This document shows, piece after piece, positions 1,554-48,047 of a stretch of 64,000 nucleotides of DNA (position 1 is its first letter; each line of letters begins with the position of its first letter). The stretch spans positions 52,383-116,382 of the forward strand of contig JBPOJJ010000003.1 in NCBI GenBank assembly GCA_052033715.1, given 5' to 3'. The notes under the pieces are model-generated. The model worked only from the letters and a program-made list of their open reading frames with translations. It was not told the origin of the DNA and did no database searches. The stretch comes from Patescibacteria group bacterium (GTDB lineage: Bacteria; Patescibacteriota; Minisyncoccia; Phycocordibacterales; CSBR16-119). A program made the translations under genes and the position numbers.

Positions 1554-2053
1554 TTGTCTGCCTGTGCAGGCAATTTCGACTCATCAATTGTATTCATATC
1601 TGTCGTATTGTCAACTGAAGGAGTCGATTCTTCAGCGATGCGTGGGCGAGGCAATTCTTCTTCTACGGCCCCTTTGAGTTTTTTGATTTCTTTCTTATAC
1701 GTTTTGATTGTAGTCAAGAAAATCGATTGCTTCACTTCGCCGTTTCCGTCTTTTTGCTCTTGCTTGATCATCTGCTGTTCGACGCGACGTATGCCTTTAT
1801 GAAACCATGTACCGATATGATGTGTCAGTCTGGCCCAGAATTTACTCAATACGATGGCTGTAGAATGGATGAACTCAAGCCAAAGTTTTCTAGCTTTCTC
1901 GTTCAATAATTTGAAGTTCTCATAAGACAAATCCTTCGAAGGGAAGGCGTCGTGAAGACGGTCTTCACGACGCAATCTTTTCGCCTGTGAAGCAAACATC
2001 CAAACGATGCCGATGAGTGCCAAGAAGAAAATTATAATTGAAACGTCGAACAT
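1544..2053 (-). CDS. hypothetical membrane-anchored protein downstream of tsf
   Basis: ORF trimmed to the internal Met (MFDVSIIIFF...) so it no longer overlaps tsf; single N-terminal TM; the 3' end overlaps the tRNA by ~10 nt, so the true stop and extent are uncertain. Confidence 0.4.
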   Translation of the reverse strand: MFDVSIIIFFLALIGIVWMFASQAKRLRREDRLHDAFPSKDLSYENFKLLNEKARKLWLEFIHSTAIVLSKFWARLTHHIGTWFHKGIRRVEQQMIKQEQKDGNGEVKQSIFLTTIKTYKKEIKKLKGAVEEELPRPRIAEESTPSVDNTTDMNTIDESKLPAQADKPE

Positions 2054-6542: not shown

Positions 6543-8512
<1,970 letters not shown>

Positions 8513-8513
8513 T

Positions 8514-8813
8514 ATGCAAAGACCAGAACCGGGATTTTATTATCACTACAAACATAACCCCGAAGATATTTTTGATCATGCGTATGAAATCGTAAATATT
8601 TCTAGACACACCGAAACCGAAGAATACTTGGTGGTCTATAGACCATTCTATAAATCAGATTTTCTAGAACACGCCGATGCGAGCGCGAGACCTATTGATA
8701 TGTTTGTTGATATGGTGACCAAAGACGGCAAAACTTTTCCAAGATTTCAGAAAATCACCGATCCGGAAATAATCAAAAAGTTGGAGCAAAAAAGAGACGA
8801 GATGTATTCTTGA
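8514..8813 (+). CDS. DUF1653-family protein
   Basis: YYHYKHN...EIVNISRHTETEEYLVVYRPFY...RPIDMFV pattern typical of DUF1653; start trimmed to the Met after the tgt stop. Confidence 0.6.
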   Translation: MQRPEPGFYYHYKHNPEDIFDHAYEIVNISRHTETEEYLVVYRPFYKSDFLEHADASARPIDMFVDMVTKDGKTFPRFQKITDPEIIKKLEQKRDEMYS

Positions 8814-16888: not shown

Positions 16889-17884
16889 ATGTTAAATGGA
16901 GATAAAACTCGCGTCGGGGTTTTGCGCGGTGGCGTGGGACCGGAATACAATGTTTCTCTAGAAACTGGCTCTTATGTGCTGGCGCATATTTCGCGCGACA
17001 AATATAGAGCCATCGACATATTGATTGATCGAGACGGTGTCTGGCATCAAAACGGCATACCAATGAGTCCGGACGATATTGGAATTCATATTGACGTGGT
17101 TTTTAATTGCTTACACGGATCAGATGGCGAAGACGGCCGGATCCAGAAATTCCTCGAAAGTAGAGATATTCCATTTGTGGGATCAGACACTCTCTCGTCG
17201 GCTCTGACCGGAAACAAAACCGCCACCAAAGAACGTTTAAAATCGATTGGTTACAAGACTCCACGATATGTCGTCCTCCAAGACCTGGGTCGATTCACCG
17301 ACGAGACCGAAAAATTAAATCATATCCGACGTAAAGCGATGGAAGTTTTTAAAAAACTCGGCGGTTCGTGGATCGTCAAACCTATTTTGGGAAGTGCTTC
17401 GACCCACACGTATCTCGTCACAAGTTTCTCCGAGCTTATTTCCATACTGCATCACTTGGCGGACATGTTTAATGAAATTTTGATTGAAGAATACGTCGAA
17501 GGCAAAGAAGTCGTCTCGGCAATTCTCGAAGGCTACAGAAATGAAAATCATTATGCGATGCCGACCCACGAAGTTATGTCGCGCGAGAACATGCCAAAGG
17601 CTGGGCCGAAACCGATGGGTTTGCACCGTGTGTACGTCGTCGGTAAAGACAGCGTCCAGAAAAAGAAAATTGAAGACATGACTCGTGAAATTCATCGTGA
17701 ATTTGGTCTTGCTGATTTTTCACTTGTCGAATACATCATTTCTCCAAAAGAAGAAATTTATGTAATCGAAGTCGACTCGGTGCCGATTCTCGGTCGCGGT
17801 ATGCCAGTACATAGCTTGCTTGAGTCAGTTGGGGTGTCCGAAGCTGATTTCATCGATCACCTGATTTCGAGGAATATAAAATGA
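16889..17884 (+). CDS. ddl: D-alanine--D-alanine ligase (ATP-grasp)
   Basis: RVGVLRGGVGPEYNVSL...NCLHGSDGEDGRIQ...WIVKP ATP-grasp pattern. Confidence 0.75.
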   Translation: MLNGDKTRVGVLRGGVGPEYNVSLETGSYVLAHISRDKYRAIDILIDRDGVWHQNGIPMSPDDIGIHIDVVFNCLHGSDGEDGRIQKFLESRDIPFVGSDTLSSALTGNKTATKERLKSIGYKTPRYVVLQDLGRFTDETEKLNHIRRKAMEVFKKLGGSWIVKPILGSASTHTYLVTSFSELISILHHLADMFNEILIEEYVEGKEVVSAILEGYRNENHYAMPTHEVMSRENMPKAGPKPMGLHRVYVVGKDSVQKKKIEDMTREIHREFGLADFSLVEYIISPKEEIYVIEVDSVPILGRGMPVHSLLESVGVSEADFIDHLISRNIK

Positions 17885-18450
17885 AGAAATTGAAACGTTG
17901 TGCTTGGCCGGGGGAAGACAAGTTGATACAGAAGTATCACGACACCGAGTGGGGCAAACCAGAGCGTCGGGACGATAAAATTTTTCGTGCAATCATTCTC
18001 GATACTTTCCAAGCCGGACTTTCGTGGAAAATAATTTTGCACAAGAGAGATAACTTCGCCAAAGCATTTGATAATTTTGATTACGAGAAAATTGCGAAAT
18101 ACGGCGAAGCGAAGAAAGCGAAACTTTTAAAAGACGCCGGAATCATCAGAAATCGTTTGAAAATAAATGGCGCGGTCGAAAATGCCAAAGCCTTCATTCG
18201 TGTGCGTAAAGAATTTGGAACATTTTCGAAATACATTTGGGGATTCGTCGGCAACAAACCGATCAATAATAAATACAAAACTCATTCGCACATTGCCGCA
18301 CGAACAGAACTATCAGATAAAATCGCTCTCGACATGAAATCGCGAGGATTTAAATTTTGCGGTTCGACGGTCACATATGCCTTCATGCAGGGAATCGGGA
18401 TGGTGAATGATCATTTGACGAATTGTTTTCGATATAAAGAATTGAAATGA
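17881..18450 (+). CDS. tag: DNA-3-methyladenine glycosylase I
   Basis: YHDTEWGKPE...LDTFQAGLSWKIIL pattern of Tag. Confidence 0.88.
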   Translation: MKKLKRCAWPGEDKLIQKYHDTEWGKPERRDDKIFRAIILDTFQAGLSWKIILHKRDNFAKAFDNFDYEKIAKYGEAKKAKLLKDAGIIRNRLKINGAVENAKAFIRVRKEFGTFSKYIWGFVGNKPINNKYKTHSHIAARTELSDKIALDMKSRGFKFCGSTVTYAFMQGIGMVNDHLTNCFRYKELK

Positions 18451-18457
18451 AAATGAG

Positions 18458-18482
18458 AAGACCCGCTGTGCAGCGGGCCTTT
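18458..18482. terminator. bidirectional terminator (tag / 18504-18842 gene)
   Basis: gacccgctg-tgc-cagcgggc hairpin between convergent genes. Confidence 0.5.
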
Positions 18483-18503
18483 CATGTTTCGTGGAGCTGT
18501 TCC

Positions 18504-18842
18504 TCAAAGAGAGAGGTCGATCCCGTCCGAGGCGAGCTGGGAGATGATGCGGAAGTTGATGTTGATCCGCTGCCCAAATCGTCCCCCGAACTTCTTTTTG
18601 AGTCCCGAGCGCTTTTCCCGGCAGTATTTCTGCCAGCCTTCGATACCACCGACGACCTCTTGGATGTATACCACGGTGTCGTCGCTGTCTTCCTCGCCGA
18701 TCCTGAGGAGTTTGTCCAGCACCTTTGGACCGCCGGCTTCTTCCACTTCGGGGTAATGATCGGTGTCGAGCCAGAGCTGGTCTTGTTCGCTGTAATCCTT
18801 GTGAAGGCCTAGTGTGGTGACGATGAAATATCGCTTAGCCAT
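18504..18842 (-). CDS. hypothetical protein (GC-rich orphan)
   Basis: Protein-like composition; local GC ~55%; chosen over overlapping + strand ORFs. Confidence 0.4.
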   Translation of the reverse strand: MAKRYFIVTTLGLHKDYSEQDQLWLDTDHYPEVEEAGGPKVLDKLLRIGEEDSDDTVVYIQEVVGGIEGWQKYCREKRSGLKKKFGGRFGQRININFRIISQLASDGIDLSL

Positions 18843-18961
18843 GGCAGGGTGTTTTATGAGCTCTCGCTCGAGTTCGTTTAAAGATTACACCGAAGTCTGG
18901 AAATGTCAAACCGCCTTTGCAAAAGATCAAAAATTGTATAGAATATTGCCTGTTACTATTT

Positions 18962-19034
18962 GGGCCCTTAGCTTAGTTGGTAGAGCGCCGCTTTTGCAAA
19001 GCGGAGGTCAGGAGTTCGAATCTCCTAGGGTCCA
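18962..19034 (+). tRNA. tRNA-Ala (anticodon UGC), no encoded CCA
   Basis: GGGCCCT acceptor with G3:U70 Ala identity pair, anticodon loop TTTGCAA, T-loop GGAGTTCGAATCTCC, discriminator A. Confidence 0.9.
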
Positions 19035-19045
19035 CGCGTTGAAAA

Positions 19046-19078
19046 AAGAGCCCACTTTTTGAGTGGGCCTTTTTTCTT
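19046..19078 (+). terminator. rho-independent terminator after tRNA-Ala
   Basis: gcccact-ttttg-agtgggc followed by cttttttc. Confidence 0.6.
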
Positions 19079-19154
19079 GCGTGGACCCGTAAAGTAGGCA
19101 AACTGCTTTGCCTGCGGGGAGATTCGAAAGCCGCAACGATGTCGCTTGCGACAA

Positions 19155-19242
19155 GTGAGGCGGGGTCGCGAGTACTTTTGAGCGTAGCGAATTAGTAACT
19201 CGTGACCGAACCCTAGGGTCCACAAAAGACACAAAGTCCCAA
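19155..19242. repeat. repeat unit 1 (ggggtcgcg...agtaactcgtgaccgaaccctagggtccac...), contains 12 bp identical to the tRNA-Ala 3' end
   Basis: Direct comparison with 19327-19431; palindrome accctagggt; followed by a 13 bp-stem hairpin. Confidence 0.6.
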
Positions 19243-19326
19243 CTGCTTGGGATTTTGTGCTTTTGTGGAAGGCGCAGCGTTGTTTTTGTTTGAGTCCGCC
19301 CGAGGTGGACGAAAGGCAAAAACCGC

Positions 19327-19431
19327 GAGCCGGGGTCGCGCAAAATTACCGTCAGGTAATTTATGTGTGACCACAAAAACTCAGTAACTCGTGACCGAAC
19401 CCCGGGGTCCATCCAAGACACAAAACCCAGA
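19327..19431. repeat. repeat unit 2 (ggggtcgcg...agtaactcgtgaccgaaccccggggtcca...)
   Basis: ~85% identity to unit 1 over the 48 bp core; palindrome changed ccctaggg to ccccgggg (symmetry preserved). Confidence 0.6.
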
Positions 19432-19462
19432 TTTATTTATAGTATAATAAACAGACTGAAAC

Positions 19463-22462
19463 ATGACTTTTCCAATCAAAAAAGTATTTGTTTTTGCTAT
19501 CCTATTTTTCTTTGTGGGTTTTTTGGACGTACAAGCGGCTACGATTACCGTTACTGACTCTACTGAAGCAGACACCGATAACGGACTATGTTCTATAGTC
19601 GAAGCGATTGCGAACGCAAATACTGATAGTCAGTCCGGCTCCGTTGATTGTGCTTCTGGATCTGGAACAGACACGATTAGTTTAGACACAGACGTCGTCT
19701 TGGACGCAGCCTTCAACAATGGCGGGGACATGAGCACTGCTACTCCAAATATAACCGGCTCTCTAACAGTTGACGGTGAAGGCAACACGATTACGCTCAC
19801 TGGAGATTTCAGGGCTTTTTATTCTGCGGCGGCCATTGATCTTGCGATAGTAGATATAGTCATATCCGGTGATGATACGGCTAATGCTGCGGCCGGAGGG
19901 GTCATGTATATTGATGGCGTTAACTCTCTTTCATTAAATGATGCAATAATTGATTCCCATTTGGCTGGCAATGGCGGAGTGATTTATGCCGAAGTTGATT
20001 CAAGTTCGACAGTCTCTATCGAAGATTCGAGTTTTATTGGAAATGAGGGGGGTGATGGTGGAGTTTTGTATGTAAACGATACTGTTAACTTAGCAAACAT
20101 ATCTATTGATAATTCTTATTTTTCTTTAAGTCTCGCTGGTTCTGGCGGAGTCTTCTATTTTAATGACGTTTTTAACGTAGACATAACGAGTTCAGTATTT
20201 TATGCCAACGAGAGCTTTTTAAAGGGAGGAGTCATAGATTTAAATGGAAATTTTGCCTCAGAGTTAAATATCACGAACAATTTTTTTGTCGCTAATATGG
20301 GTGGTGGTGGAGTTGGTGATGGCGGTGTCTTGTTTATGACTGGAGGAGATTATTCTATAAACGCAGCACACAATACTTTTCTGGGTAACGGACAAAGCGC
20401 TACCATTAAGGTCAGCGGGACTAATTCGGCGCCATCATTCTTTGAGAATAATATTTTTACCGAGGCCGGAGACTGTGAGGGGGATTTTACAAATTTTACT
20501 TTTACAAACAATCTCGCAGAAGACTCTGATTGTGGCAGTACAACTGAGGTTACAAACATGGACACAAGTCTCGCTGACAACGGTGGGTTATGGGACAGCA
20601 TAGCTTTGCAGGCGGGTAGTAATGCCATCGATGCTGGTGTTGCGGGAACTCTAGGCTGTCCGACAACTGACGCGAGAAGCGTGACTAGGCCCGTGGGAGC
20701 CGCTTGTGACATTGGAGCTTTTGAATTAGGTGTAGACGCCATCACCGTGACTCAGTCTGGCGGTAGTACGGCGGTTACTGAAGATGGTGCGACGGACACA
20801 TTTACACTCTATCTTGAGAACTTTCCGTCCGCTAGCGTTACTATAAATCTTACCGACGACAATCAGACAAATGTCTCACCGACCTCGGTTACATTCTTGC
20901 AGGCTGATTGGCCAGAGACGAAAACTGTAACTGTCTCAGCCGTTGATGATAGTGAGAACGAAGACGATACACACACAGGCTCCATTTCTTTTTCTGTGAC
21001 CTCAGGTGACGCCGGTTATAACAATTATTCTCTTTCTAATATTTCTGTTTCTGTGGCAGACAATGATTCTTCTGGGAGCAGCGGTAGTAGTGGGCCAGTT
21101 AATCCGCCACCGCCCCCACCACCAACTCCAATTCCGGGATGTACGAATCCTATCGCCCTCAATTACAACAGTGGTGCGAATACTGACAATGGATCATGTA
21201 CGTATCCTCCAGTGACGGTTCTCGGGTGTACTGATTCTTCAGCTACTAATTACAATCCATTGGCTAATCAAAACAATGGCTCGTGTACGTTTCCGCCAAC
21301 AGTAATTCTCGGATGTACCGATTCGTCCGCGACAAACTATGATTCTAGCGCAAATACTGACAATGGATCATGCATGTATCCTGTTTTGGAATTGGAAGAA
21401 GAGGTAATTCCTGTTGTCGAAGAGAGCATTCCGGTTGTTAGCGATGGCACAAAACCGGAACTTCCGGTCGCTGTAAAACATGTTTTTAATGGTTTGGTGC
21501 TCGGATTACCAGAAGTGCTTCAGGAGATCCCAAAAAACTTAGTCGACGCGATTTCTGTTGCCGGACTTGCCTTGCCTACTCTACTCGTTCTTACTACACA
21601 ACCAGCCACAGTTGCTTCTATCCCGCTTCGTTTGTGGAATCTTATCCCAACACTCTTAGGCTTCCGTCGGAAGAAGCGTCCGTGGGGAACAGTTTATGAT
21701 TCTGTTACCAAACAGCCGCTCGATCCGGTTTACGTCAAGCTTACTGATATGCGGGGTCGGGAAGTCGCTACGACCATTACTGATATTGATGGACGTTTCG
21801 GCTTCTTGGTTGCTCCGGGCACATATCGTTTGAGTGCCAACAAAGACAATTATGTTTTTCCATCACAAAGACTTGCCGGGAAAGATCATGACGAGCTTTA
21901 TGACAATCTGTATTTTCAAGAAGAGGTAACCATCAGCAACCAAGACGATCTTTTAATTAGAAACATTCCGATGGATTCGCAGAGTTTCAATTGGAATGAA
22001 TTTGAAAAAGCCAAGAACAAAAATCTGATGAAGTTTTATTCCAGAAGAGATTTATTCTTGGCGAAAACGGCAAGCGTTCTATTTATTCTCGGTATTGTTT
22101 CGTCTCTCGTCCTCATGTTTATGACACCCGTGCCGATCAATTTTATTATCCTCTGCTTCTACGGAGTTGTTTTGATTCTGCGAGCCTTTGGAGTGCGACC
22201 GAAAAAACCGGGGTATGTTATTGAAAAAGAAACGGGTTTTCCACTTTCTTTTGGTATTATTAAAATATTCAGTGCAGAGATTGGTCGGGAAGTCGCTCAT
22301 GTCGTTATCGGTAAAACCGGTAAGTACTACACCCTGGTTCCAAATGGGGAATATTACATGCAGATTATGAAAAAGACTGGCGAAGATACTTACGAGAAAG
22401 TTTTTCAGGGCGAGGATTTTGCTGTTAGAGGAGGATATATTGGAAAAGTTTTTAAGGTATAG
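19463..22462 (+). CDS. large surface protein with four parts: CSLREA-like N-terminal motif plus parallel beta-helix repeats; three Cys-framed ~30-aa repeats; a polyproline linker; C-terminal TM helices with two carboxypeptidase-regulatory-like domains
   Basis: Signal peptide; GLCSIVEAIANAN; Gly/Asn-rich beta-helix repeats; CDIGAFE motif; PPPPPPPTPIP; hydrophobic helices near the C-terminus. Confidence 0.85.
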   Translation: MTFPIKKVFVFAILFFFVGFLDVQAATITVTDSTEADTDNGLCSIVEAIANANTDSQSGSVDCASGSGTDTISLDTDVVLDAAFNNGGDMSTATPNITGSLTVDGEGNTITLTGDFRAFYSAAAIDLAIVDIVISGDDTANAAAGGVMYIDGVNSLSLNDAIIDSHLAGNGGVIYAEVDSSSTVSIEDSSFIGNEGGDGGVLYVNDTVNLANISIDNSYFSLSLAGSGGVFYFNDVFNVDITSSVFYANESFLKGGVIDLNGNFASELNITNNFFVANMGGGGVGDGGVLFMTGGDYSINAAHNTFLGNGQSATIKVSGTNSAPSFFENNIFTEAGDCEGDFTNFTFTNNLAEDSDCGSTTEVTNMDTSLADNGGLWDSIALQAGSNAIDAGVAGTLGCPTTDARSVTRPVGAACDIGAFELGVDAITVTQSGGSTAVTEDGATDTFTLYLENFPSASVTINLTDDNQTNVSPTSVTFLQADWPETKTVTVSAVDDSENEDDTHTGSISFSVTSGDAGYNNYSLSNISVSVADNDSSGSSGSSGPVNPPPPPPPTPIPGCTNPIALNYNSGANTDNGSCTYPPVTVLGCTDSSATNYNPLANQNNGSCTFPPTVILGCTDSSATNYDSSANTDNGSCMYPVLELEEEVIPVVEESIPVVSDGTKPELPVAVKHVFNGLVLGLPEVLQEIPKNLVDAISVAGLALPTLLVLTTQPATVASIPLRLWNLIPTLLGFRRKKRPWGTVYDSVTKQPLDPVYVKLTDMRGREVATTITDIDGRFGFLVAPGTYRLSANKDNYVFPSQRLAGKDHDELYDNLYFQEEVTISNQDDLLIRNIPMDSQSFNWNEFEKAKNKNLMKFYSRRDLFLAKTASVLFILGIVSSLVLMFMTPVPINFIILCFYGVVLILRAFGVRPKKPGYVIEKETGFPLSFGIIKIFSAEIGREVAHVVIGKTGKYYTLVPNGEYYMQIMKKTGEDTYEKVFQGEDFAVRGGYIGKVFKV

Positions 22463-22503
22463 AATCCCTGCACTGATTTGACAAATCATTAAAACTATGT
22501 AAT

Positions 22504-23970
22504 ATGGAGATACTTATGAAAATAAAATTCTTGATTTTTGTCGCACTATTCTTTTTAGTTTCGGCTAGAGCTTCGGCTGCCACGATAAATACAGGTCCAG
22601 ATTGTCCGCTTTTGGACGCTGTTATTTCGGCTCAGACAAATACCTCTTCATCGGGATGCGTTGCTGGTTTTGGGGCGGACACAATCAATATTACCCAAGA
22701 TGAAACAATTTCTTCCGAATACGATTCTTCTGGCAATTCTTTTCCTGTTATAACTGAACCTCTTACGATAAATGGAAACGGTTACACTATAATTCACGAA
22801 AATCCCGGCTTCAATCTCGTGCGCCTTTTTCAGGTTGTTGGCACAGATTTCACTTTGGATAACATTAAATTCGAACACACATACGGCTTTACTGCAGACG
22901 ACGGTGGCATGATTCACGCCACGGATTCCGTCGTTACTCTTAAGAGATCAGATTTTTCTTCCTTTAACGCGGGAGCCAAGGGCGGTGTTATTTATATACA
23001 AAATGGAAATCTTGTCATCCAAAAGAGCAATTTCAGCGGGAATTGGGCCTATGACGGTGGAGCCATATATATAGATAATGGAAACTTAAACATTCAATCA
23101 GGTAATTTTAGTGGCAATAGTTGTTGGAACGAAGGATGTGCTGTTATGACCGAGGGTCAGGTTAGCACAACTATTTCATCTTCTGTTTTTTTTCAAAACA
23201 TTGGAGCTCGGGCTGCCGCCATAAGTGCGGGCGCTAATTCAAATGGAAAATCTCTCACCGTGATAGATTCGGAATTTATAGAAAATAGTGTGATTAATGG
23301 AAATGATAGTGGTGCTGTGATTTGGAAAGGAGAAAATGGAACCGTAAAGATAACCAGGACAACCTTTTTTGGTAATCAGGGGTCAGGTTTTGGTGCAGGG
23401 TTCTACAACGAAGGAAGCTCGTCGAATGTTATTGTGATCAATTCAACGTTCTCGGATAACCACACCAATGGTCCGGGCTCGGCGATATTAAATGTTGCCG
23501 AAGGCGTCAGATTGGATGTCGCGTACAATACCTTCATCAACAATGACTCTTTCACAATTGAAGGAGCGCTTTCGATCACTGGTCCGCAGCTAGTTGATTC
23601 TGTTGTAGAAAACAATATTTTTACTAACAACGACGGCGATTGTAATTTTGCTTCTCATTTGGGAGTTAATTTTGTTAACAATCTTTCTGATGACGGAAGC
23701 TGTAGTTCTGTTGTCGCGACAAACATATCTTCAGTCCTCGCCCATAATGGCGGCCCCACTAGGACGCACGCGCTTTTGGCGGGAAGTAACGCTGTCGACA
23801 CAGCGGTGACTGATATGTTGTTGGTCCGAAACCCTTGTCCAAAAGGAGATCAAAGAATATATCCTCGAATGATCGATGGAAATAATGACGGAATTTTGAA
23901 ATGTGATATCGGAGCATACGAAAGACAAAAGAAAATCGCTCAAACTGTCCTAAAGCCATTTAGGCCGTAA
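22504..23970 (+). CDS. secreted CSLREA / beta-helix repeat protein (paralogous architecture; likely starts at MKIKF, 22516)
   Basis: Signal peptide; DCPLLDAVISA; NGN/GGA beta-helix repeats; C-terminal CDIGAYE motif; TTGACA-16-TAATAT promoter abutting the start. Confidence 0.85.
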   Translation: MEILMKIKFLIFVALFFLVSARASAATINTGPDCPLLDAVISAQTNTSSSGCVAGFGADTINITQDETISSEYDSSGNSFPVITEPLTINGNGYTIIHENPGFNLVRLFQVVGTDFTLDNIKFEHTYGFTADDGGMIHATDSVVTLKRSDFSSFNAGAKGGVIYIQNGNLVIQKSNFSGNWAYDGGAIYIDNGNLNIQSGNFSGNSCWNEGCAVMTEGQVSTTISSSVFFQNIGARAAAISAGANSNGKSLTVIDSEFIENSVINGNDSGAVIWKGENGTVKITRTTFFGNQGSGFGAGFYNEGSSSNVIVINSTFSDNHTNGPGSAILNVAEGVRLDVAYNTFINNDSFTIEGALSITGPQLVDSVVENNIFTNNDGDCNFASHLGVNFVNNLSDDGSCSSVVATNISSVLAHNGGPTRTHALLAGSNAVDTAVTDMLLVRNPCPKGDQRIYPRMIDGNNDGILKCDIGAYERQKKIAQTVLKPFRP

Positions 23971-24072
23971 AAACTCCAAACCCAGCTTTCAAATTGTTTC
24001 AATTTTTGTACGGGCCCAGTAAAATTCTTCTTCCACACTCTAAAAACAGCCTAGTCTGTTAAAATTAGATCA

Positions 24073-25983
24073 ATGAAACATTTTTTGGTTTTTCTTTTTG
24101 TTATTTTTTGTGCTGGGATTGTTGGGCATTTTGTTTTTGCCGATCAGGTTGAAAGGGTAAGTGTGACTACTTCTGGTACCCAAGGAAATGGGACCTCTTT
24201 TGGAGCACAAATGTCTTCGGATAATGAATATATTGTCTTCACTTCTTCCGCTTCTAACTTGGTAGATGGAGACACGAACGGCGTGGCCGATGTGTTCGTC
24301 TATAGTAGAGATACGGGCGTAATCGAGAGAGTCAGCCTTGATAGTTTGGGTACTCAAGGAAATGGTGCTCCAATTTATGAACCAGCTATTTCTGCCGACG
24401 GACGGTATGTCGCTTTTGATTCCGAAGCAATAAATTTTGATTTAAGTGACACGAATGGTTTATCAGATATCTTTGTCTATGACCGTCAAACCGACACCAT
24501 TGAACGGGTGAGTGTTGACGATGTGGGCACGGAAGCAGATGGTGCGTCGTACATTGTCTCAATGTCTTCTGATGGAAGGTATGTCGCATTCAATTCCGAC
24601 GCAACCAATCTTGTGGCGGGAGACACGAACGGTGTCGCCGATGTTTTTGTCTATGACCGTCAAACCGACACCATTGAACGGGTGAGTGTTGACGATGTGG
24701 GCACGGAAGCAGACCTTGGTACTATAAATTACCTTGATATTTCCGATGACGGACAATATGTCACTTTTGATTCCGACGCAACCAATCTTGTGGCGGGAGA
24801 CACGAACGGTGTCGCCGATGTTTTTGTCTATGACCGTCAAGCCGACACCATTGAACGGGTGAGTGTTGACGATGTGGGCACGGAAGCAGATGGTGGTTCG
24901 TTGTTTCCATCTTTGTCGGGAGATGGTCGGTATGTGGCTTTTCTTTCCTTGGCAACGAATCTTGTTTCTGGAGATACAAATGGCACATTTGATATTTTCG
25001 TTTATGACCGTCAAACCGACACTATTGAACGGGTGAGTGTAAACAGCCAGGGTCAGCAAGCAAACAATGCATCTTCTTATTATTCTTCAATTTCTTTTGA
25101 TGGACGATATGTCATTTTCAATTCTATAGCCACAAATCTTGTGGCAAATGATACCAACGGCAAGGCAGATATCTTTGTTCGTGATCGAACACTTGGTACC
25201 ACTGAACGTATAAGTGTTGGAGAAAATGGTGTCGAAGCAAATGACCACTCCTTCTTTCGTGCAAATGTTTCCACTGACGGTCGGTATGTTTTGTTTCCTT
25301 CACTCGCATCAAATCTTGTTTCCGGAGACACGAACGCCGCAATAGACGTATTTGTTTACGATAGAGAGTATGAAGAAGTCGAGGCGGCTGTTGTTTCAGG
25401 TGGGGTAAATAGTTCTGGATTTTTGCAGCCTCACATAAGTCTAGAAAATTATGCAACACAGACGTCGAGTCAGACGGTCAATTTAGTTGCGCATATTCCT
25501 GTAACAACTACTTTTTATGAGATTTCCAATACGTCTGATTTCGCTAATCGACAGATTTTCATCCGGGACGGTTTGGAAAAAATTCTACAGTGGGATATTT
25601 GTAATAATTTAAAAACTTGCGAACCCGGACAAAAAAAGATTTACGCGCGTTTTTATAATCAAGAGAGGATGATTTCGGAACAGATTTTGGAAATAAATTA
25701 CTTGCAGACGAGAGAGTGTCCGTATTTCAAGCAATACTTACGAATGGGCTCCAACAAGAATAACCCAGATGAGGTTATAAAGATGCAAGCATTTTTGAAT
25801 GCATATATGGGAGAGAATCTTTCCGTCGACGGCTATTTTGGCCGATCTACCGACAGGGCCGTTAGAAGATTTCAAGAGAAATATCCAGACCAAATAATCC
25901 GTCCATGGCCGACACTCGACCGCTCGACCGGTTGGTGGTACATCACCACTTCCGGCTACGCTAACGTTTTGGTTGGGTGCTAG
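24073..25983 (+). CDS. secreted PD40/TolB-like beta-propeller repeat protein with C-terminal peptidoglycan-binding-like domain
   Basis: Signal peptide; >7 repeats of (DTNGVADVFVYDRQTDTIERVSVD...SDGRYVAF); C-terminal GYFGRSTDRAVRRFQ motif. Confidence 0.85.
   Translation: MKHFLVFLFVIFCAGIVGHFVFADQVERVSVTTSGTQGNGTSFGAQMSSDNEYIVFTSSASNLVDGDTNGVADVFVYSRDTGVIERVSLDSLGTQGNGAPIYEPAISADGRYVAFDSEAINFDLSDTNGLSDIFVYDRQTDTIERVSVDDVGTEADGASYIVSMSSDGRYVAFNSDATNLVAGDTNGVADVFVYDRQTDTIERVSVDDVGTEADLGTINYLDISDDGQYVTFDSDATNLVAGDTNGVADVFVYDRQADTIERVSVDDVGTEADGGSLFPSLSGDGRYVAFLSLATNLVSGDTNGTFDIFVYDRQTDTIERVSVNSQGQQANNASSYYSSISFDGRYVIFNSIATNLVANDTNGKADIFVRDRTLGTTERISVGENGVEANDHSFFRANVSTDGRYVLFPSLASNLVSGDTNAAIDVFVYDREYEEVEAAVVSGGVNSSGFLQPHISLENYATQTSSQTVNLVAHIPVTTTFYEISNTSDFANRQIFIRDGLEKILQWDICNNLKTCEPGQKKIYARFYNQERMISEQILEINYLQTRECPYFKQYLRMGSNKNNPDEVIKMQAFLNAYMGENLSVDGYFGRSTDRAVRRFQEKYPDQIIRPWPTLDRSTGWWYITTSGYANVLVGC
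24476..24900 (+). repeat. near-identical ~174-180 bp in-frame tandem repeats inside the PD40 gene (3 copies)
   Basis: gtctatgaccgtcaaaccgacaccattgaacgggtgagtgttgacgatgtgggcacggaagcaga recurs at ~24476, ~24650, ~24830 with 1-2 mismatches. Confidence 0.8.
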
Positions 25984-26064
25984 ATATCAAAAGGTTTACA
26001 AAAAACAAGTTTTTGTTTATAGTCTTTCGTGAACCAGGAACAAACCATATAAACCCGCAAGGTC

Positions 26065-26421
26065 ATGCACACCGCAGCAATGAAAATTCCAGTGTCTGTG
26101 CCTTTAGCCAGACCCGAGGAGGTCGAGTCCCCAACTGACCCGATGTCTCAAAGGACAAAAAGGCAAAGGCAGATCTACGACAACGGCTCCTACCAATTCA
26201 GGCACCTTATCCTTGTTGTCCTCAAAACCAACAAGAGAGGCAGGGCTGGATACGACACCACAACCCACTTTGTGCTCAGGGATTACCCAGATCTGAGGTG
26301 GGAAGAAGAGAAGGAGTTCGTGCGTGAGCTGCTCAAGAAGCACCATCCTGGACTCTATAAGCGTCTGGAGACCAATAAGTGGATATGGGTGAAGCCTGAA
26401 CCAAAGAAGAAACTCGCTTAA
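26065..26421 (+). CDS. hypothetical protein (GC-rich orphan; start uncertain)
   Basis: ~52% GC; strong terminator immediately downstream; no recognisable domain. Confidence 0.4.
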   Translation: MHTAAMKIPVSVPLARPEEVESPTDPMSQRTKRQRQIYDNGSYQFRHLILVVLKTNKRGRAGYDTTTHFVLRDYPDLRWEEEKEFVRELLKKHHPGLYKRLETNKWIWVKPEPKKKLA

Positions 26422-26437
26422 CCGTGTCCTTTCGTCG

Positions 26438-26481
26438 TAAAGCGCCCCCTGACCTCACCAGTCGGGGGCGCTTATCGTTTT
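26438..26481 (+). terminator. rho-independent terminator
   Basis: aagcgccccc...gggggcgctt long stem followed by atcgtttt. Confidence 0.6.
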
Positions 26482-26521
26482 AAATAAGGTTTTTTAAAAT
26501 TTATCTCGATAAAAAGTCGTT

Positions 26522-26603
26522 TTGACAGCCAAATCAAAAAAAGTAGAATTAACGAAAATGTTGGGGTAGATTGCTTGACAAATGAAATGTCTTGCCGTAT
26601 AAT
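26522..26603 (+). promoter_or_regulatory. two tandem sigma70-like promoters (TTGACA-16-TAGAAT and TTGACA-17-TATAAT) with ~150 nt leader
   Basis: Exact consensus hexamers at 26575-26580 / 26598-26603; weaker pair at 26522-26527 / 26544-26549. Confidence 0.5.
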
Positions 26604-26761
26604 CCCGCCATAAAGATTCGAACGTCTTTTTCGCTCGAATTTGTAAAAAAGATTGTTTGATGAGATGGGAGGCTTGAAACCTTTCGAATAATCTTGTCTG
26701 GCAACCAATGTAGTTCAATTCGTTTATTAATTTTGCGTTTATTACTAAAAAATATTTTATT

Positions 26762-29416
26762 ATGAAGAATTTTAAGATTAAAAATCTATCGAAAAGAGCG
26801 CTTCTCGGCGTCTTTGTTTTTCAGTTTGCAGTAACAACCTCTTTCGCCCCGATAATCGCGCGAGCTCAGGTGGTAACCGAAGAGATGGCCGTTGATACGG
26901 TGGAAACTGTGGCTGAACCTGTAGAAATCAGTACCTCTGAAGAAGTTGTCGTAGAAGAAACAACTACAGACGTACCTGAAGGCGAAACAACAACTCCTTC
27001 CGGTGAGGAAACCACCGAACCAGAGGCAAAGACCGAAGAAAAGTCATTTTCTGTTGTTGGTGGCGGCGGACACGATCCCGTTGATATCTGCCACGCAGCC
27101 GGCCAGAGCGGTAATTACATTTTTCTTACAGTCGACGACGATGGTGCATACGGAGGACATGGCGGTCATGAAAATGACATCTTGCCAATTACTGATGTCA
27201 ATGGTGACAGGGAAATCAATCAAGCCGATTGTGATTATCAGGCTCCGGAAGAAGAATCTTGCGATGCTTCAATAAACCTATTTGATAACTCGGGATTTGA
27301 AAATCCGGTTCTTCCTGGATCTTGGAACATCTATGCTGATGGAACATCTGGTTTGGCTTGGGATGTCGAGTGGCAAGCTGGCTCTGGCGACAACACTCCT
27401 GCCAAAGCCGAATTGCAACAGATCTACACTGCTCACTCTGGCGAACAATATTTAGAACTAGATTCTGATTTTGATGGACCAGGGGGATCAATTTCAAACG
27501 AAGAAGCTTCTACTCGAATCTCCCAAACTATTACGACTGTTCCTGGACAAGAATACGAAATCTCATACTTCTATTCTGCTCGACCTGGATATGGATACGA
27601 TGACAACAAGGTTGGTCTATATATTGATGGGTTCCCTTGGGATCTTTCTGTAACGACTAATGGCGTTGGTGACTCAGATACTTTTTGGGCACAGAAATTC
27701 AATCATTTTACAGCTGATAGCACTTCTCACACGATAACTTTTGCTGATCTTGGAACAGCTAATTCTTTTGGAATGTTTCTAGATGATATGCGTGTAAATT
27801 GTGTCGAAGAAGATGGCGGTGGTGACGACGACAAGAATACTCCTCCAGACATTGATGTCGTTCCAGAAATTATCGAAGTTTTCATCGGTTCAGTTTGTGA
27901 CGAAGCGCTTATAATGGGTGGCGTTACGGCTGATGACCTTGAAGACGGTAATCTAACAAATGAAATCGAATATGCTGGAACTGTCAATTGTAATGTTCTG
28001 GGCGACTATCCAGTGACTTACAATGTCGAAGATTCCGAAGGGCTCCCAGCCGAAGAGGAAACTCGTATTATTCGCGTTGTAAATAATGACGACGAAGAAG
28101 AAAATCCTTCTTGTGATTCACAGGCAATTTGGGCTCGAGTCGTCGTTACTTCATACTCAAATGTCGGTGCGGGTGATATGACCAACACTATCTACCTCGG
28201 TTCTTCGATCAACACTGTCACTACAGGAGAATGGTTCCCGGTTTCTCCGGCAGATGTTCAGAATATAGAAAACTTCGCGGACGTATCAGGACTCGCTGTT
28301 AAAAGACGAGTAGACAACAAGATCGTTCTTGAACTTCACGGAAGTCATCTTCCAAAAGGAACTGGTAAGGAATACGCCGATGGGTATATTGAATTCTTTA
28401 ATGCTGTACCAAGCGTTCTTGTGGGTGCAACTGGTCAGAATAAACTAGAACTCAATGGAGATAATGAAATTGGCCACCAGGATATTGTTTGGATTGATGG
28501 AGATAAGGCAAATTTCAATCTCGGAGTCGGGACAGCCGATGATCGATTCTCTACAACCTATACATATTCTCTAGACGAAGAGTGCGATGACGATGGCGGT
28601 GGAGACAATAACAATCCTCCGGCTATCGTTTTGGCTGACGAGTGTATCCTTTGGTCAGAAGAATCTTTCAATTTCACATCTGGCGTTACAACATCAGATG
28701 CTGACGGAGATACAGTTAACCTTACTTACGTAGTTAGCCCTGATCCAATAGTTTTTGGTCAAGATGGAACTTATACAATCACTTATACTGCTGATGACGG
28801 AGAAGACACCACGGTCGTCTCAAAGACTCTAACCATTGATGAAGATTGTGAAGAGGACAATGGGGGTGGCGGAGGTGATGACGAAGAGGACAATGGCGGC
28901 GGAGGCGGTGGAGGTAGTTCAGGAAGTATTCTTGGCGGCGGAGGTTCAAACAGACAAGGTGAAGTCTTGGGTGCCACAACTGCGGCTTGTGCACAATTCA
29001 CTCAGTATCACGATACTGGAAGTACTCAGAGCGAAGTCAGAGCTCTCCAGACATTCCTAAACGAATACATGGATGCGGGACTTACAGTGAACGGAACTTA
29101 CGACTGGGCAACGACTCAGGCAATACATGACTTCCAGGCTTTGCACTGGGATGCCATCATCAAACCATGGCTTGGTTCACCAAGTAAAATCAGTCCGAAC
29201 ACAACTGGCCGAACCCGACAGACGACAACTCAGGCTTTGAACTTCATCATCAACTGTCCAAATGATGCCATGTATCTAGAAGATCCTCAGATTTTCTACA
29301 AACTTACTGAAATCAAAAACAAAAAAGAATTTTCCGCGGATCAAATTATGAAGATAACGAATATCTTGGATGAAGTTCACGGAATAGTTCTCGGAGCTGA
29401 GGCAATGGAAAAATAA
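26762..29416 (+). CDS. large secreted protein with five parts: acidic Thr/Glu-rich linker; Cys/His N-module plus jelly-roll-like domain; two Ig-like (DUF5011-like) domains; Gly-rich linker; C-terminal peptidoglycan-binding-like domain
   Basis: Signal peptide; VDICHAAG...H..H motif; LFDNSGFENPV...FLDDMRVNCVEE; TADDLEDGNLT; GGGGG runs; ALQTFLNEY...DGTYDWATTQAIHDFQ. Confidence 0.85.
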   Translation: MKNFKIKNLSKRALLGVFVFQFAVTTSFAPIIARAQVVTEEMAVDTVETVAEPVEISTSEEVVVEETTTDVPEGETTTPSGEETTEPEAKTEEKSFSVVGGGGHDPVDICHAAGQSGNYIFLTVDDDGAYGGHGGHENDILPITDVNGDREINQADCDYQAPEEESCDASINLFDNSGFENPVLPGSWNIYADGTSGLAWDVEWQAGSGDNTPAKAELQQIYTAHSGEQYLELDSDFDGPGGSISNEEASTRISQTITTVPGQEYEISYFYSARPGYGYDDNKVGLYIDGFPWDLSVTTNGVGDSDTFWAQKFNHFTADSTSHTITFADLGTANSFGMFLDDMRVNCVEEDGGGDDDKNTPPDIDVVPEIIEVFIGSVCDEALIMGGVTADDLEDGNLTNEIEYAGTVNCNVLGDYPVTYNVEDSEGLPAEEETRIIRVVNNDDEEENPSCDSQAIWARVVVTSYSNVGAGDMTNTIYLGSSINTVTTGEWFPVSPADVQNIENFADVSGLAVKRRVDNKIVLELHGSHLPKGTGKEYADGYIEFFNAVPSVLVGATGQNKLELNGDNEIGHQDIVWIDGDKANFNLGVGTADDRFSTTYTYSLDEECDDDGGGDNNNPPAIVLADECILWSEESFNFTSGVTTSDADGDTVNLTYVVSPDPIVFGQDGTYTITYTADDGEDTTVVSKTLTIDEDCEEDNGGGGGDDEEDNGGGGGGGSSGSILGGGGSNRQGEVLGATTAACAQFTQYHDTGSTQSEVRALQTFLNEYMDAGLTVNGTYDWATTQAIHDFQALHWDAIIKPWLGSPSKISPNTTGRTRQTTTQALNFIINCPNDAMYLEDPQIFYKLTEIKNKKEFSADQIMKITNILDEVHGIVLGAEAMEK

Positions 29417-29430
29417 TAAATTAAAAGAAA

Positions 29431-29470
29431 GAGAAAATCCCCCGCGTCTGACGTGGGGGATTTTCTCTTG
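29431..29470 (+). terminator. strong rho-independent terminator
   Basis: gagaaaatcccccgcg-tctga-cgtgggggattttctc. Confidence 0.65.
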
Positions 29471-29486
29471 CTCCTATCATAAACAC

Positions 29487-29495
29487 TGGTATAAT
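29487..29495 (+). promoter_or_regulatory. extended -10 element TGGTATAAT
   Basis: TGnTATAAT match ~20 nt upstream of the 29516 start. Confidence 0.4.
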
Positions 29496-29515
29496 TTAAC
29501 CAAGTCAAATATTTC

Positions 29516-30019
29516 ATGCAAACTCAAAGCTTCCATCGAAGTAAATACAATATCTGTTGGATCTCCGTACTGGTGATCTTTGTCGGTACGATTATTTATC
29601 CGATTAGTTTTGAGCGCGCAGATAAAAAAAGCCATACTCCTGTCGTCCAGTCTGTCACGCCGACTTTTTCGTTTCCGACAGTAGAAGTTACTCCAATAAG
29701 AAATTATCCAACCACTGTCAAAACTGAAACCATAAAACCGGTAACTTCATCCAAACTAATTTTTACTCGCGATCTGAAAATAGGGGACAAGGGCCCAGAC
29801 GTGAAAAAACTTCAGCAATATTTGAATCAGCGCGGATTTATCGTAGCAACCTCTGGTAATGGTTCTCCGGGACAAGAAAGTGAATTATTCGGTCCAGGAA
29901 CACAAAACGCACTCAAGCGTTTTCAGGAAAGTTATGCAGAGATACTTCTCAAGCCCTACGGATTATCAGAAGGGACGGGATTTTTCGGGGAAGTTACGCG
30001 AAAATTCGTTAATTCATAA
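29516..30019 (+). CDS. membrane-anchored protein with peptidoglycan-binding-like domain
   Basis: N-terminal TM; GDKGPDVKKLQQYLNQRGF...FGPGTQNALKRFQ. Confidence 0.7.
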   Translation: MQTQSFHRSKYNICWISVLVIFVGTIIYPISFERADKKSHTPVVQSVTPTFSFPTVEVTPIRNYPTTVKTETIKPVTSSKLIFTRDLKIGDKGPDVKKLQQYLNQRGFIVATSGNGSPGQESELFGPGTQNALKRFQESYAEILLKPYGLSEGTGFFGEVTRKFVNS

Positions 30020-30029
30020 AGATTATTTC

Positions 30030-31253
30030 ATGAAGGATTTTCTAAAAATTTTAGTTGTTATGTCGATAATCTGCCCGACATTTCTGTTGGCGCAGACACC
30101 CACTGTTCCAGACGCTCCTTTGAATTTACTGGGTCGTTCGGCAGCTAAAGAAATTTACGTTCAGTGGGATGTTCCATTAAGTGACGGCGGTTCAGCCATA
30201 GACGGATATAACTTAAATTACAGAGAAGGGAATAGCGGTGTCTGGATGTCGTCGTTTACAACACTGACAAACTATACACTATCGAGTTTGACACAGAACA
30301 CAGAGTATCAGATTTTTGTCACGGCGGTTAATATCGTAGGAGAAAGTCGGCCGTCGGAAACCATAAACATACAGCTTGGCCCGTTTGATGAAGAAGATAC
30401 GGTGTCCCCGGTTGTAGTTGGAGAGATTGTCGTATCAAATATTTCCAACGATGGAGCGACAATTACTTGGACCACAGACGAACCGACCACCTCGGCAATT
30501 TATTATGATGTTCATCGCGAAGATCAACATGGTCTTGTTATCGGTGCAACATTAACGACCGAACATCAGATTGATTTGTCGGGGCTGATTTCTTGCTCAG
30601 AGTATTTCTTTGTTGTTGGAGGAGAAGATGCGAGCGAAAATTTTTACACGAGTAGCGTAGAAGAATTTGAAACATCTGGTTGTGTTGGGCAAGTTACATC
30701 CCAGGATGTTGGAGATCTTGTTCCGCCAGATAGTGTGAATACGTTTTCTTTTGAAAATGCCAAAGTTGAAATCGTTGCTGGTCCTGGAATAGTCGATCGA
30801 GATGCTGTATTTCAAGTAAAAAGATTGAGTGTCTCTTCTGTTGACGGAGAAGTGGGTTGTCCAGTCGATGCAAAACCACTGGGAGAGAATATTTATGACA
30901 TAAAACTCTTAGATAATTATGATTCTGTGGCGAGTATTCGAGAACCCGTCACCGTAACGATAGATTATGGCGATGAGGACATAGATAATATAAAAGAAGA
31001 AAGCTTGTCACTCTATCATTATGCCGAAGGTGTGGGTTGGCAAAAACTAAATTCTTGCTCGGTAAACAAAGAAGAGAAAAAAATAACTTGTGAGGTTCAG
31101 AATTTCTCAAAATTTATGGTTGCCGTAGAAGAAAATTGTGATTCAGAACAAAATAACTGGTTTTTTTCTAAATTTGATTCGTTTTTTTCCAAAATAGACC
31201 ATAAAATAAAGACTTTTTTCTGGGGAAAGATAATGGGCATGAAGGTATTTTAG
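30030..31253 (+). CDS. secreted fibronectin-type-III repeat protein
   Basis: Signal peptide MKDFLKILVVMSIICPTFLLAQT; FN3-like segments (PDAPLNL...YQIFVTAVN; ATITWTTDEPTTSAIYY); start reassigned from overlapping ORF. Confidence 0.75.
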   Translation: MKDFLKILVVMSIICPTFLLAQTPTVPDAPLNLLGRSAAKEIYVQWDVPLSDGGSAIDGYNLNYREGNSGVWMSSFTTLTNYTLSSLTQNTEYQIFVTAVNIVGESRPSETINIQLGPFDEEDTVSPVVVGEIVVSNISNDGATITWTTDEPTTSAIYYDVHREDQHGLVIGATLTTEHQIDLSGLISCSEYFFVVGGEDASENFYTSSVEEFETSGCVGQVTSQDVGDLVPPDSVNTFSFENAKVEIVAGPGIVDRDAVFQVKRLSVSSVDGEVGCPVDAKPLGENIYDIKLLDNYDSVASIREPVTVTIDYGDEDIDNIKEESLSLYHYAEGVGWQKLNSCSVNKEEKKITCEVQNFSKFMVAVEENCDSEQNNWFFSKFDSFFSKIDHKIKTFFWGKIMGMKVF

Positions 31254-31287
31254 TCCTTGATTTTTAAATCTTTCATGTTATAATATA

Positions 31288-32352: not shown

Positions 32353-32479
32353 GATAATTGAAATAAGGCCTTGTTTTTTGCGTCATAAGGGGTAGACTAG
32401 TAATGATTTTATTGGTCTTTTTAAGGGCCAATTTTAAGGGGTTTTACTAAGTAGATTATCATTAAAAAATAAGAACATT

Positions 32480-45930: not shown

Positions 45931-46005
45931 ATTTAGTTTCTTAATGATTTTCCAATTTTCTCCCGACGCCTCTCTACTAGTCTTGCACTACTTAGCTTTA
46001 TTCGT

Positions 46006-46024
46006 GCTGCGGGACTAGGACTCG
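46006..46024. repeat. 19 bp direct repeat of the tRNA-Gln 3' end (att-like core)
   Basis: gctgcgggactaggactcg identical at 46006-46024 and at the tRNA 3' end (46190-46208). Confidence 0.6.
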
Positions 46025-46191
46025 GTCACAAATCACTAAGTCTTTTATTTCGCTTCGCTCATAAAATCCAAAGTGTTCGCGACCCCGTCTCGGCACTTCA
46101 TCCTGCTTTGGCAGGCGTGCCTGCGATCTTCTCGTCCTTCAGAAACAGTCATGTAAATTTTGCTGGAATAGCCCAGACAAAATTTTCATAG

Positions 46192-46262
46192 CTGCGGGAC
46201 TAGGACTCGAACCTAGATACCCAGGACCAAAACCTGGTGTCCTACCATTAGACGATCCCGCA
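46192..46262 (-). tRNA. tRNA-Gln (anticodon UUG), U1:A72, discriminator G73, no encoded CCA
   Basis: Reverse complement TGCGGGA...CCAGG-TTTTGGT-CCTGG...CTAGG-TTCGAGT-CCTAG-TCCCGCA-G cloverleaf. Confidence 0.88.
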
Positions 46263-46362
46263 ATTCGTTTATTTTGCCTCAAAATTATCTTTTAATCAAG
46301 AAAAAAGTAACTCTTGCCAAAAACTGTTTCAGGGCGTAGATTGAATACGAAAAACAACACTG

Positions 46363-46827: not shown

Positions 46828-46844
46828 TTGTCCGCTCGCATCAA

Positions 46845-46890
46845 GGTAGCCCCGCCGTATTCTCGGCGGGGCTTCCGTGTTTTATGCAAG
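46845..46890 (+). terminator. rho-independent terminator
   Basis: agccccgccg-tattct-cggcggggct then tccgtgtttt. Confidence 0.6.
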
Positions 46891-48045: not shown

Positions 48046-48047
48046 AA

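Follow-up and report, generated by a model that had tools for sequence, protein, structure and literature searches.

The stretch analysed here, termed the window, comprises 64,000 nucleotides (nt) of contig JBPOJJ010000003.1 (assembly GCA_052033715.1) from a Patescibacteria group bacterium. Within it, a gene for tRNA-Ala(UGC) is directly followed by two tandem units, Ala-1 and Ala-2, which belong to a previously undescribed family of size-constant, structured, gene-less elements attached to tRNA T-loops in Patescibacteria. The tRNA-Ala gene encodes no CCA, and its final 12 nt read CCTAGGGTCCAC. Each unit extends from the first base past the tRNA, or past the preceding unit, through a copy of the tRNA tail (Table 1), so that the units measure 188 and 189 bp and not the approximately 90 bp assigned to them in a preliminary description of this locus.

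The two direct repeat units recognised in that description are clearly present. The sequence GGGGTCGCG occurs at 19162-19170 and 19332-19340, a spacing of 170 nt, and a 29-nt core, AGTAACTCGTGACCGAACCCNNGGGTCCA, occurs exactly twice, at 19194-19222 and 19383-19411, a spacing of 189 nt. No further match to the core exists in the 64 kb at three or fewer mismatches, and none appeared in 100 shuffles. The 12-mer CCTAGGGTCCAC is confined to the end of tRNA-Ala (19024-19035) and to 19212-19223, with a chance expectation of 0.04 per window; the previously noted match to the tRNA 3' end is therefore genuine. The names borne by homologues of the clamp-loader gene (HolB in Table 1), together with the housekeeping gene content, point to a Patescibacteria/Paceibacterota-like chromosome. 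Contigs of relatives, given L numbers, were retrieved via close homologues of the glycosylase gene near tRNA-Ala (called Tag, annotated as 3-methyladenine glycosylase) or by a metagenome scan.

Table 1. Positions of the tRNA genes, the elements with their parts and one neighbouring gene in the window
Feature	Position	Strand	Evidence or remark
tRNA-Ala(UGC), putative attachment point	18962..19035	+	ARAGORN; Rfam tRNA 72 bits
Element Ala-1, 188 bp (unit 1 of the preliminary description plus its 5' half)	19036..19223	+	single homologous copies behind tRNA-Ala in L035/L036 and L046/L048
Intrinsic terminator hairpin opening Ala-1, apparently bidirectional	19049..19076	+	terminator scan
GTGGACCC, antisense of the tRNA-Ala acceptor 3' strand	19081..19088	+	inverted repeat I3; folds
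GGGGAGATTCGAA, antisense of the T-stem 3' strand and T-loop, in the loop of hairpin P3	19116..19128	+	
P5 hairpin, type i, foot GGUCGCG/CGUGACC, tip GAGCGUAGCGAA, then GA	19162..19209	+	covariance model 62 bits
Sense copy of the tRNA-Ala 3' end, T-loop CGA to C74 (CGAACC-CTAGGGTCCAC)	19207..19223	+	
Element Ala-2, 189 bp, tRNA-distal (unit 2 of the preliminary description)	19224..19412	+	nhmmer E=5e-22; fold
Terminator hairpin and U-tract opening Ala-2	19230..19269	+	13-bp stem 19230-19259, then CTTTTGTGGA
P5 hairpin, type ii, of Ala-2 (GGGGUCGCGCAAAAUUACC-GUCA-GGUAAUUUAUGUGUGACC)	19332..19374	+	subtype as in the L040 tRNA-Ser element
Second, type-i-like 3' foot strand (AGTAACTCGTGACC) and decayed tail copy of Ala-2	19383..19412	+	holds the 29-nt core
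DNA polymerase III clamp-loader gene (called HolB)	44512-45537		homologues annotated gamma/tau
Element Gln, 185 bp	46006..46190	-	nhmmer E=9e-12; sequence; fold
CGAGTCCTAGTCCCGCAGC, exact 19-nt copy of the tRNA-Gln 3' end, T-loop to C74	46006..46024	-	19 nt likewise in L132
P5 hairpin of element Gln	46022..46086	-	covariance model 87.6 bits
tRNA-Gln(UUG), putative second attachment point	46191..46262	-	ARAGORN; Rfam 60.9 bits

Every element type, whether behind tRNA-Ala, tRNA-Gln or tRNA-Ser, carries a sense copy of its own tRNA tail that starts at the T-loop CGA. The cognate matches measure 12-13 nt for Ala, 12 nt for Ser and 19 nt for Gln, lengths reached in none of 1000 shuffles, while non-cognate tRNAs match the element tails over at most 7 nt. 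The Ala tail reads CGAA(T/C)C-CTAGGGTCCAC and the Ser tail CGA...CCCTCTCCGCCA. Relatives of the Ala type show CGAATC-CTAGGGTCCAC where the tRNA has CGAATCTCCTAGGGTCCAC, which identifies the ccgaacc motif, at first called only T-loop-like, as true tRNA T-loop sequence. In Ala-1 the last 12 nt of the copy are exact and serve at once as the right-hand direct repeat and as the 3' strand of a closing helix, P1; the Ala-2 copy, CCCCGGGGTCCAT, has three mismatches in 12.

An antisense copy of the tRNA tail is clear in the Ala and Ser types and degenerate in the Gln type (CUG..GGAC). In the Ala type a hairpin divides it into GTGGACCC and GGAGATTCGAA, and in L040 the 18 nt GAGAGGGGGAGATTCGAA are the exact antisense of tRNA-Ser positions TTCGAATCTCCCCCTCTC. 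The reverse complement of GGGGAGATTCGAA matches tRNA-Ala over 11 nt and tRNA-Ser over 13 nt, reached in 0 of 1000 shuffles, and L040 has an identical 18-mer. The acceptor segment GTGGACCC has two possible partners: as the 5' strand of P1 it pairs with the downstream sense copy, and alternatively it can pair across the terminator with the 3' end of tRNA-Ala itself (I3). Should the strand fold, the two tail copies, sense and antisense, would create a duplex that matches the tRNA gene's 3' end exactly, and the foot of the adjacent P5 hairpin would extend this duplex past the T-loop.

The two units differ in their P5 subtype, and Ala-2, to judge by its parts, is a composite of both subtypes; Ala-1 and Ala-2 are therefore regarded as separate events and not as products of a tandem duplication. 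At the centre lies an octamer that reads CCCTAGGG in unit 1 but CCCCGGGG in unit 2, as initially noted, and the TA-to-CG change does preserve the dyad. The selection read into this compensated palindrome is statistically weak and unneeded: given changes at both central bases, the dyad survives with a probability of one third, the palindrome CCTAGG is present in tRNA-Ala itself, and CCCTAGGG results from a small deletion within the copied tail. In unit 2 the change may lengthen a local helix (CCGGGG/CCCCGG), an observation from one sequence only.

Structure and conservation of the P5 hairpin

The P5 hairpin directly precedes the tail copy. Its foot, GGUCGCG/YGUGACC, is invariant, including a fixed G.U pair, and its distal stem varies in sequence while pairing is kept. 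Across six type-i copies, 95% of cells are paired, compared with 33-48% when partners are slid, seven pairs are changed on both sides, and the covariation score is reached by no shuffle. A covariance model built from these six copies finds exactly three copies in the window and recovers type-ii hairpins outside its training set, namely those of Ala-2 (25.8 bits, E about 8e-4) and L040 (30.7 bits). Where both strands of a locus were compared, the sense strand scores 85-89 bits and the opposite strand 17-20 bits, and because of this gap of ~70 bits the folded strand is taken to be the tRNA-sense strand. A marginal match to the model at 1946-1974 (+), inside an open reading frame (ORF), scores 15.6 bits (E about 0.2) and is probably due to chance.

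Past its terminator, each unit is predicted to adopt a multi-branch fold closed by P1, with strands GUGGACCC/GGGUCCAC in unit 1, and the predicted folds share this architecture among all element types. The fold energy of 19078-19270 lies at z = -7.7 relative to shuffles. The terminator stem of the Ala-1 type has a different sequence in L035, L029 and L048, with pairing kept. Between the window and L132, P5 and the tail differ at 1 of ~82 positions, compared with ~12 of 104 in the 5' half.

Copies, empty sites and other insertions at tRNA ends

A profile search of the window with the unit (nhmmer) revealed a third copy, on the minus strand behind tRNA-Gln, consisting of a hairpin/terminator, the degenerate antisense acceptor segment, a type-i P5 and the tail copy. 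L132 carries a near-identical Gln-type element. In L040 a homologous unit, obtained by the metagenome scan, lies behind tRNA-Ser(CGA) and ends in CCCTCTCCGCCA, the tail of that tRNA. L035/L036 show tRNA-Ala, a terminator and a single unit ending in CCTAGGGTCCAC, whereas in L029/L030 and L046/L048 the tail copy of the tRNA-Ala unit is shortened to CGAATCT and the remainder is well conserved. A scan of metagenomes for GGGGAGATTCGAAAGCCG returned 19 loci, three of them real (L040, L046 and L048). Further copies are thereby known at tRNA-Gln, at tRNA-Ser and at tRNA-Ala of other contigs.

All copies lie at tRNA ends and span 179-204 bp, with a common order of parts: terminator, antisense tail, the small hairpin P4, P5 and sense tail. 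The constant neighbour of the family is the tRNA gene, whose own tail copy forms the 3' end of the element. On the other side, the copies at tRNA-Gln and in L035 and L132 adjoin unrelated housekeeping genes, namely one for a 3-methyladenine glycosylase or one for a DNA polymerase III clamp-loader subunit that lies beyond a short unannotated ORF.

Sites without the element occur as well. The tRNA-Ala gene lacks it in L032 and L056, the tRNA-Gln gene lacks it in L133 and L134, and within the window tRNA-Thr is followed by a plain terminator only. The downstream flank of L032 (TTTGACAWT...CGTAAAGTTAA) is the flank of the occupied L029 and L048, and L032 accordingly looks like an empty site. In different lineages gene order is interrupted exactly at the right end of the element, and the orientation of the tRNA relative to its neighbours flips. 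Comparison of 17881-19463 with L032 6001-8839 and L035 6001-6819 shows the order of glycosylase, tRNA-Ala and surface-protein gene kept, with the tRNA flipped and the intervening genes different. By this comparison, the lineage has a breakpoint of rearrangement at the tRNA 3' end; integrase-driven rearrangements between tRNA genes give such gene-order breaks (PMC5495485).

A second kind of insertion, designated X, is found at these tRNA ends in L031 (about 7815-8600, minus strand), L029 (7660-7795) and L132 (5226-5288). X is ~775 nt long, GC-rich and ORF-less, with a 23-nt long-range helix. Its end reads ...GTTCGGAYTTTGTT..GACA, and next come the tRNA's final 4 nt (CCAC for Ala, CAGC for Gln), beyond which lies either the small element or the flank of an empty site. 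X resembles one terminus of a transposon-like element that entered precisely at the tRNA end and duplicated 4 bp of its target. Rfam has no match for X, and contig ends fall within it; a group II intron was considered and discarded on the lack of an Rfam match and of a convincing domain V. Upstream of X, L031 8653-12561 is missing from the otherwise identical L032 and encodes glyoxalase/bleomycin-resistance, LUD-domain, HTH, Na/Ca-exchanger, GmrSD/HNH and EcoRI-methylase-like proteins; it looks like a strain-specific island with defence genes. The independent assemblies of L028, L035 and L036 end at one point inside tRNA-Ala(UGC), at ...TAGAGCGCC, and the tRNA-Ala of L032 has a variant anticodon stem. 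The common break point together with this variant stem suggests a second tRNA-Ala copy, for example in an rRNA operon, or strain mixtures.

Other features surround the elements. Between the glycosylase gene and tRNA-Ala, a 112-amino-acid (aa) ORF (18504-18842, minus strand) has no word-sharing homologue among 5.8 billion proteins and no exact record, its sole Pfam match being sub-threshold DUF4286; the small genes at this position differ between relatives. A series of large predicted surface or secreted proteins occupies 19463-33886, the first beginning 50 nt past Ala-2, with beta-helix/pectate-lyase-like, CarboxypepD_reg, Ig-like, fn3, CAP, DUF642 and peptidoglycan-binding domains. L032 encodes a comparable 1438-aa protein on the opposite side of its tRNA-Ala. 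Just upstream of tRNA-Gln, 46001-50000 has a GC content of 0.49-0.51, against ~0.43 elsewhere, and encodes a protein of 517 aa with a fatty-acid-desaturase domain, as well as ORFs that lack any Pfam match.

Searches and comparison with known systems

Searches of Rfam 15 with all three element types, at gathering and permissive thresholds, brought only tRNAs to threshold. Weak matches (rimP leader, Trp leader, sX4 and permuted tmRNA at 13 bits) fall on terminators or the tRNA, at chance level. A tmRNA, including the two-piece form, was considered on account of GGGGAGAUUCGA; ARAGORN finds none, and the motif is the antisense T-arm. No conserved ORF exists inside the element (179-204 bp), and a small one across GGGGTCGCG was discarded, its frame differing between the Ala and Gln types. 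Within unit 1 and ahead of the conserved parts of unit 2, a consensus scan yields no promoter-like site. A diversity-generating retroelement was rejected on three grounds: copies at other tRNAs, differences that are not adenine-specific and no reverse transcriptase found. A retron was set aside on the last of these grounds, and a role of the antisense copy as primer-binding site on the finding that the last 5 nt of the tRNA are not covered.

Scanning contigs of species genomes for CGTGACCGAACCCNNGGGTC gave 27 matches, all attributable to chance in high-GC genomes and none with an upstream GGTCGCG or AGTAAC. In IMG/VR two exact patterns had no matches, and a gapped pattern had 73 loci, none matching the unit profile by nhmmer. 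Searches with blastn against phage and plasmid collections returned no match. Neither a larger element with this core at its end nor a known one of which the unit would be a deletion derivative was found in the phage, plasmid, IMG/VR, GTDB-species and JGI collections.

Known systems resemble the elements in part. Tyrosine integrases use a T-loop sublocation of tRNA genes, for which the signature is a direct repeat of the stretch between the T-loop and the 3' end (bioRxiv 10.1101/2020.11.02.365908), and phage Ms6 integrates at tRNA-Ala T-loops (PMC1762012). The elements have the direct repeats of a tRNA segment that belong to this class, related genomes hold both empty and occupied versions of the site, and no integrase gene lies inside the element. 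As in tRNA islands and prophages such as Ms6 and P4-like elements, the tRNA is kept intact by one copy, tandem arrays occur and members reside at different tRNAs; those islands, however, are kilobase-sized and carry an integrase, whereas the present elements are 180-200 bp, gene-less, and have an extra antisense tail and a covarying hairpin abutting the crossover. Cis-mobilizable elements (CIMEs) likewise have att-type repeats and no recombination genes and stand in tandem at one tRNA end, but they are heterogeneous decay products, unlike a single size-constant architecture at three tRNAs.

Folded-strand recombination sites offer another analogy, with attP(+) of the CTX phage (PMC3442271) and attC of integrons (PMC4792948) as examples. 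Like P5, they are strand-specific hairpins beside the crossover, in which the foot is conserved and the stem varies with covariation; the newest array unit lies nearest the attachment site, and the folded strand could mimic the duplex target. Unlike them, the present locus has no IntI or attI found in the window, no RYYYAAC/GTTRRRY boxes and no Xer/dif-like sites, its target is a tRNA T-loop, and the single-stranded state is here putative.

Miniature inverted-repeat transposable elements (MITEs) and structured repeats (Correia, RUP, ERIC and REP) are also ~100-200 bp long, non-coding, hairpin-rich and non-autonomous, often with terminators. MITEs, however, have the terminal inverted repeats of a parent insertion sequence, fixed short target duplications and many sites, whereas the present elements end in a terminator and a tRNA tail copy, reside only at tRNA ends and have tRNA repeats of 12-19 nt. 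Guide-carrying RNAs of mobile elements, such as the IS110 bridge RNA, the omega RNAs of IscB/TnpB and the homing crRNAs of tRNA-targeting CRISPR-associated transposons, are likewise structured non-coding units with sense and antisense target matches. Here, by contrast, no recombinase or nuclease gene is adjacent, no resemblance to the tested Rfam families exists, and match lengths and layout differ; the two-loop layout of the bridge RNA is absent from the predicted fold. RNAs of the tRNA 3' external transcribed spacer, such as 3'ETS-leuZ, also lie in a tRNA trailer; in the present case a terminator intervenes, the tail is duplicated and presence varies by strain. No comparable element was found in the literature searched.

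Origin and significance of the elements

We assign a probability of about one half to the reading that the two units are tandem insertions of miniature, non-autonomous integrative elements using the tRNA T-loop as attachment site. This reading best accommodates the repeat from T-loop to tRNA end, the presence/absence polymorphism, the constant size, the tandem order with distal decay and the gene-order breaks. It makes the elements a new variant of tRNA-targeting integrative elements, for which we infer the following mechanism. One tail copy would complete the tRNA and the other would mark the far end of the insert, the junction pattern of T-loop site-specific recombination, and the element would be moved by a recombinase encoded elsewhere. 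The site of recombination probably takes the form of a strand-specific fold in which the antisense and sense tails pair and imitate the double-stranded 3' end of the tRNA gene, with the invariant P5 foot as a putative second arm beside the crossover GTGAC|CGA. Each new insertion at the intact tRNA would displace earlier copies away from it, which fits Ala-1, with its perfect repeat, at the tRNA and Ala-2, decayed and composite, beyond it. Of the identities first suggested for the locus, successive integrations at tRNA-Ala come closest to the evidence (T-loop repeats, subtypes, distal decay, empty relatives), with the correction that the units are not shapeless remnants, since a 180-200 bp architecture recurs at tRNA-Gln and tRNA-Ser.

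Several observations count against mobility of this kind. No recombinase (neither a Phage_integrase nor any other recombinase domain), transposase or reverse transcriptase was found among the 39 window ORFs scanned, nor was any of the three found beside a copy. No excised form and no full-length autonomous relative was found. The exact-pattern scans, which covered 185,579 species genomes, JGI metagenomes and IMG/VR, gave very few or no matches, and the distinct copies known number eight. The right-hand repeat is truncated in L029/L030 and L046/L048 while the rest stays conserved, and a double-stranded circle of 185 bp is a poor recombination substrate. An integrase model alone leaves unexplained an antisense copy matched to its own tRNA. 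The low divergence of P5 and the tail from L132 suggests purifying selection in place, which would favour a host-level function.

A more specific proposal, to which we attach little weight, is a minimal mobile element of a new class, a gene-less cassette of ~185 nt whose recombining form is a folded single strand, with the T-loop as the 'attI' of an integron-like array. Its paired tails would mimic the chosen tRNA 3' end, the P5 foot would be a second recombinase arm, and retargeting would proceed by changing both tail copies. We infer the folded single strand, by analogy with CTX and attC, from three features, namely the specificity for one strand, the invariance of the foot and an antisense copy that matches the tRNA.

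That the units act as structured RNA in the tRNA 3' trailer, produced by terminator read-through or from an unrecognised promoter, is unlikely but deserves weight; the preliminary description had also considered tRNA-derived regulatory RNAs, and this idea persists as a rival. P1 and a loop-to-linker pairing would be built from the antisense and sense tails, with possible roles in the maturation or quality control of tRNA or in titrating, as sponge or decoy, the factors that bind its 3' end. The strong strand-specific fold of 19078-19270, the multi-branch architecture common to all types, the compensatory changes in P5 and P4, the G.U pairs present on the tRNA-sense strand only, the ~70-bit strand gap and the superior conservation of P5 and the tail all agree with an RNA, as does the fact that the reduced genomes of Patescibacteria retain little non-functional DNA. 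A good intrinsic terminator ahead of every unit and the lack, in the consensus scan, of a promoter-like site before the conserved parts are nevertheless awkward for an RNA gene and irrelevant to a DNA site. Further difficulties are the failure to match Rfam at permissive thresholds, the loss of the P1 3' strand in L029/L030 and L046/L048 with the rest intact, and the sporadic presence, with no element at tRNA-Thr or in L032, L056, L133 and L134. A trailer RNA also leaves unexplained a tail that always starts at the T-loop CGA.

The units could instead be scars of larger T-loop-integrated islands or prophages that lost their interior and kept only what adjoins attL and attR, in which case the hairpins would be left over from att arms or terminators and would now lack a role. 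Classic tRNA-integrating islands have such direct repeats, CIMEs are decayed elements that retain attL and attR and accrete in tandem (PMC5704250), X shows that other insertions reach these tRNA ends in relatives, and repeats are truncated in some copies. Such an origin is nonetheless distinctly doubtful: independent deletions would not yield one size of 179-204 bp and one order of parts at three tRNAs in different genomes, a covarying hairpin with an invariant foot is a structure kept under selection, and the IMG/VR, phage and plasmid collections yielded no larger element with the core at its end. Least probable by far is that a tandem duplication arose locally and acts on the surface-protein genes downstream, whether as their leader, as an operator or as a site for a dimeric protein (for example CCCNNGGG). 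It draws on the 50-nt distance between Ala-2 and the 999-aa surface-protein ORF at 19463, on a promoter-like site overlapping the end of Ala-2 and on the palindromic octamer of both units. An operator role, as initially proposed for these genes, is contradicted by the unrelated housekeeping genes beside the copies at tRNA-Gln and in L035 and L132, the only constant neighbour being the tRNA; moreover, the palindrome is tRNA sequence (CCTAGG), and units of different subtype are no recent duplication.

Whether integrative elements or RNAs, the units are an annotation hazard because they resemble pseudo-tRNA tails, extra terminators and assembly break points. If they act as RNAs, they constitute an undescribed class of tRNA-linked RNA. 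The reduced genomes of Patescibacteria are thought to hold few mobile elements, and if the units are mobile they would be, to our knowledge, the smallest tRNA-targeting integrative elements. The conserved hairpin and the target-matched antisense/sense pair suggest a programmable, structure-based choice of tRNA site, which would be relevant to the retargeting of recombinases, and mobility of the elements could account for the gene-order breaks at tRNA genes in this lineage.

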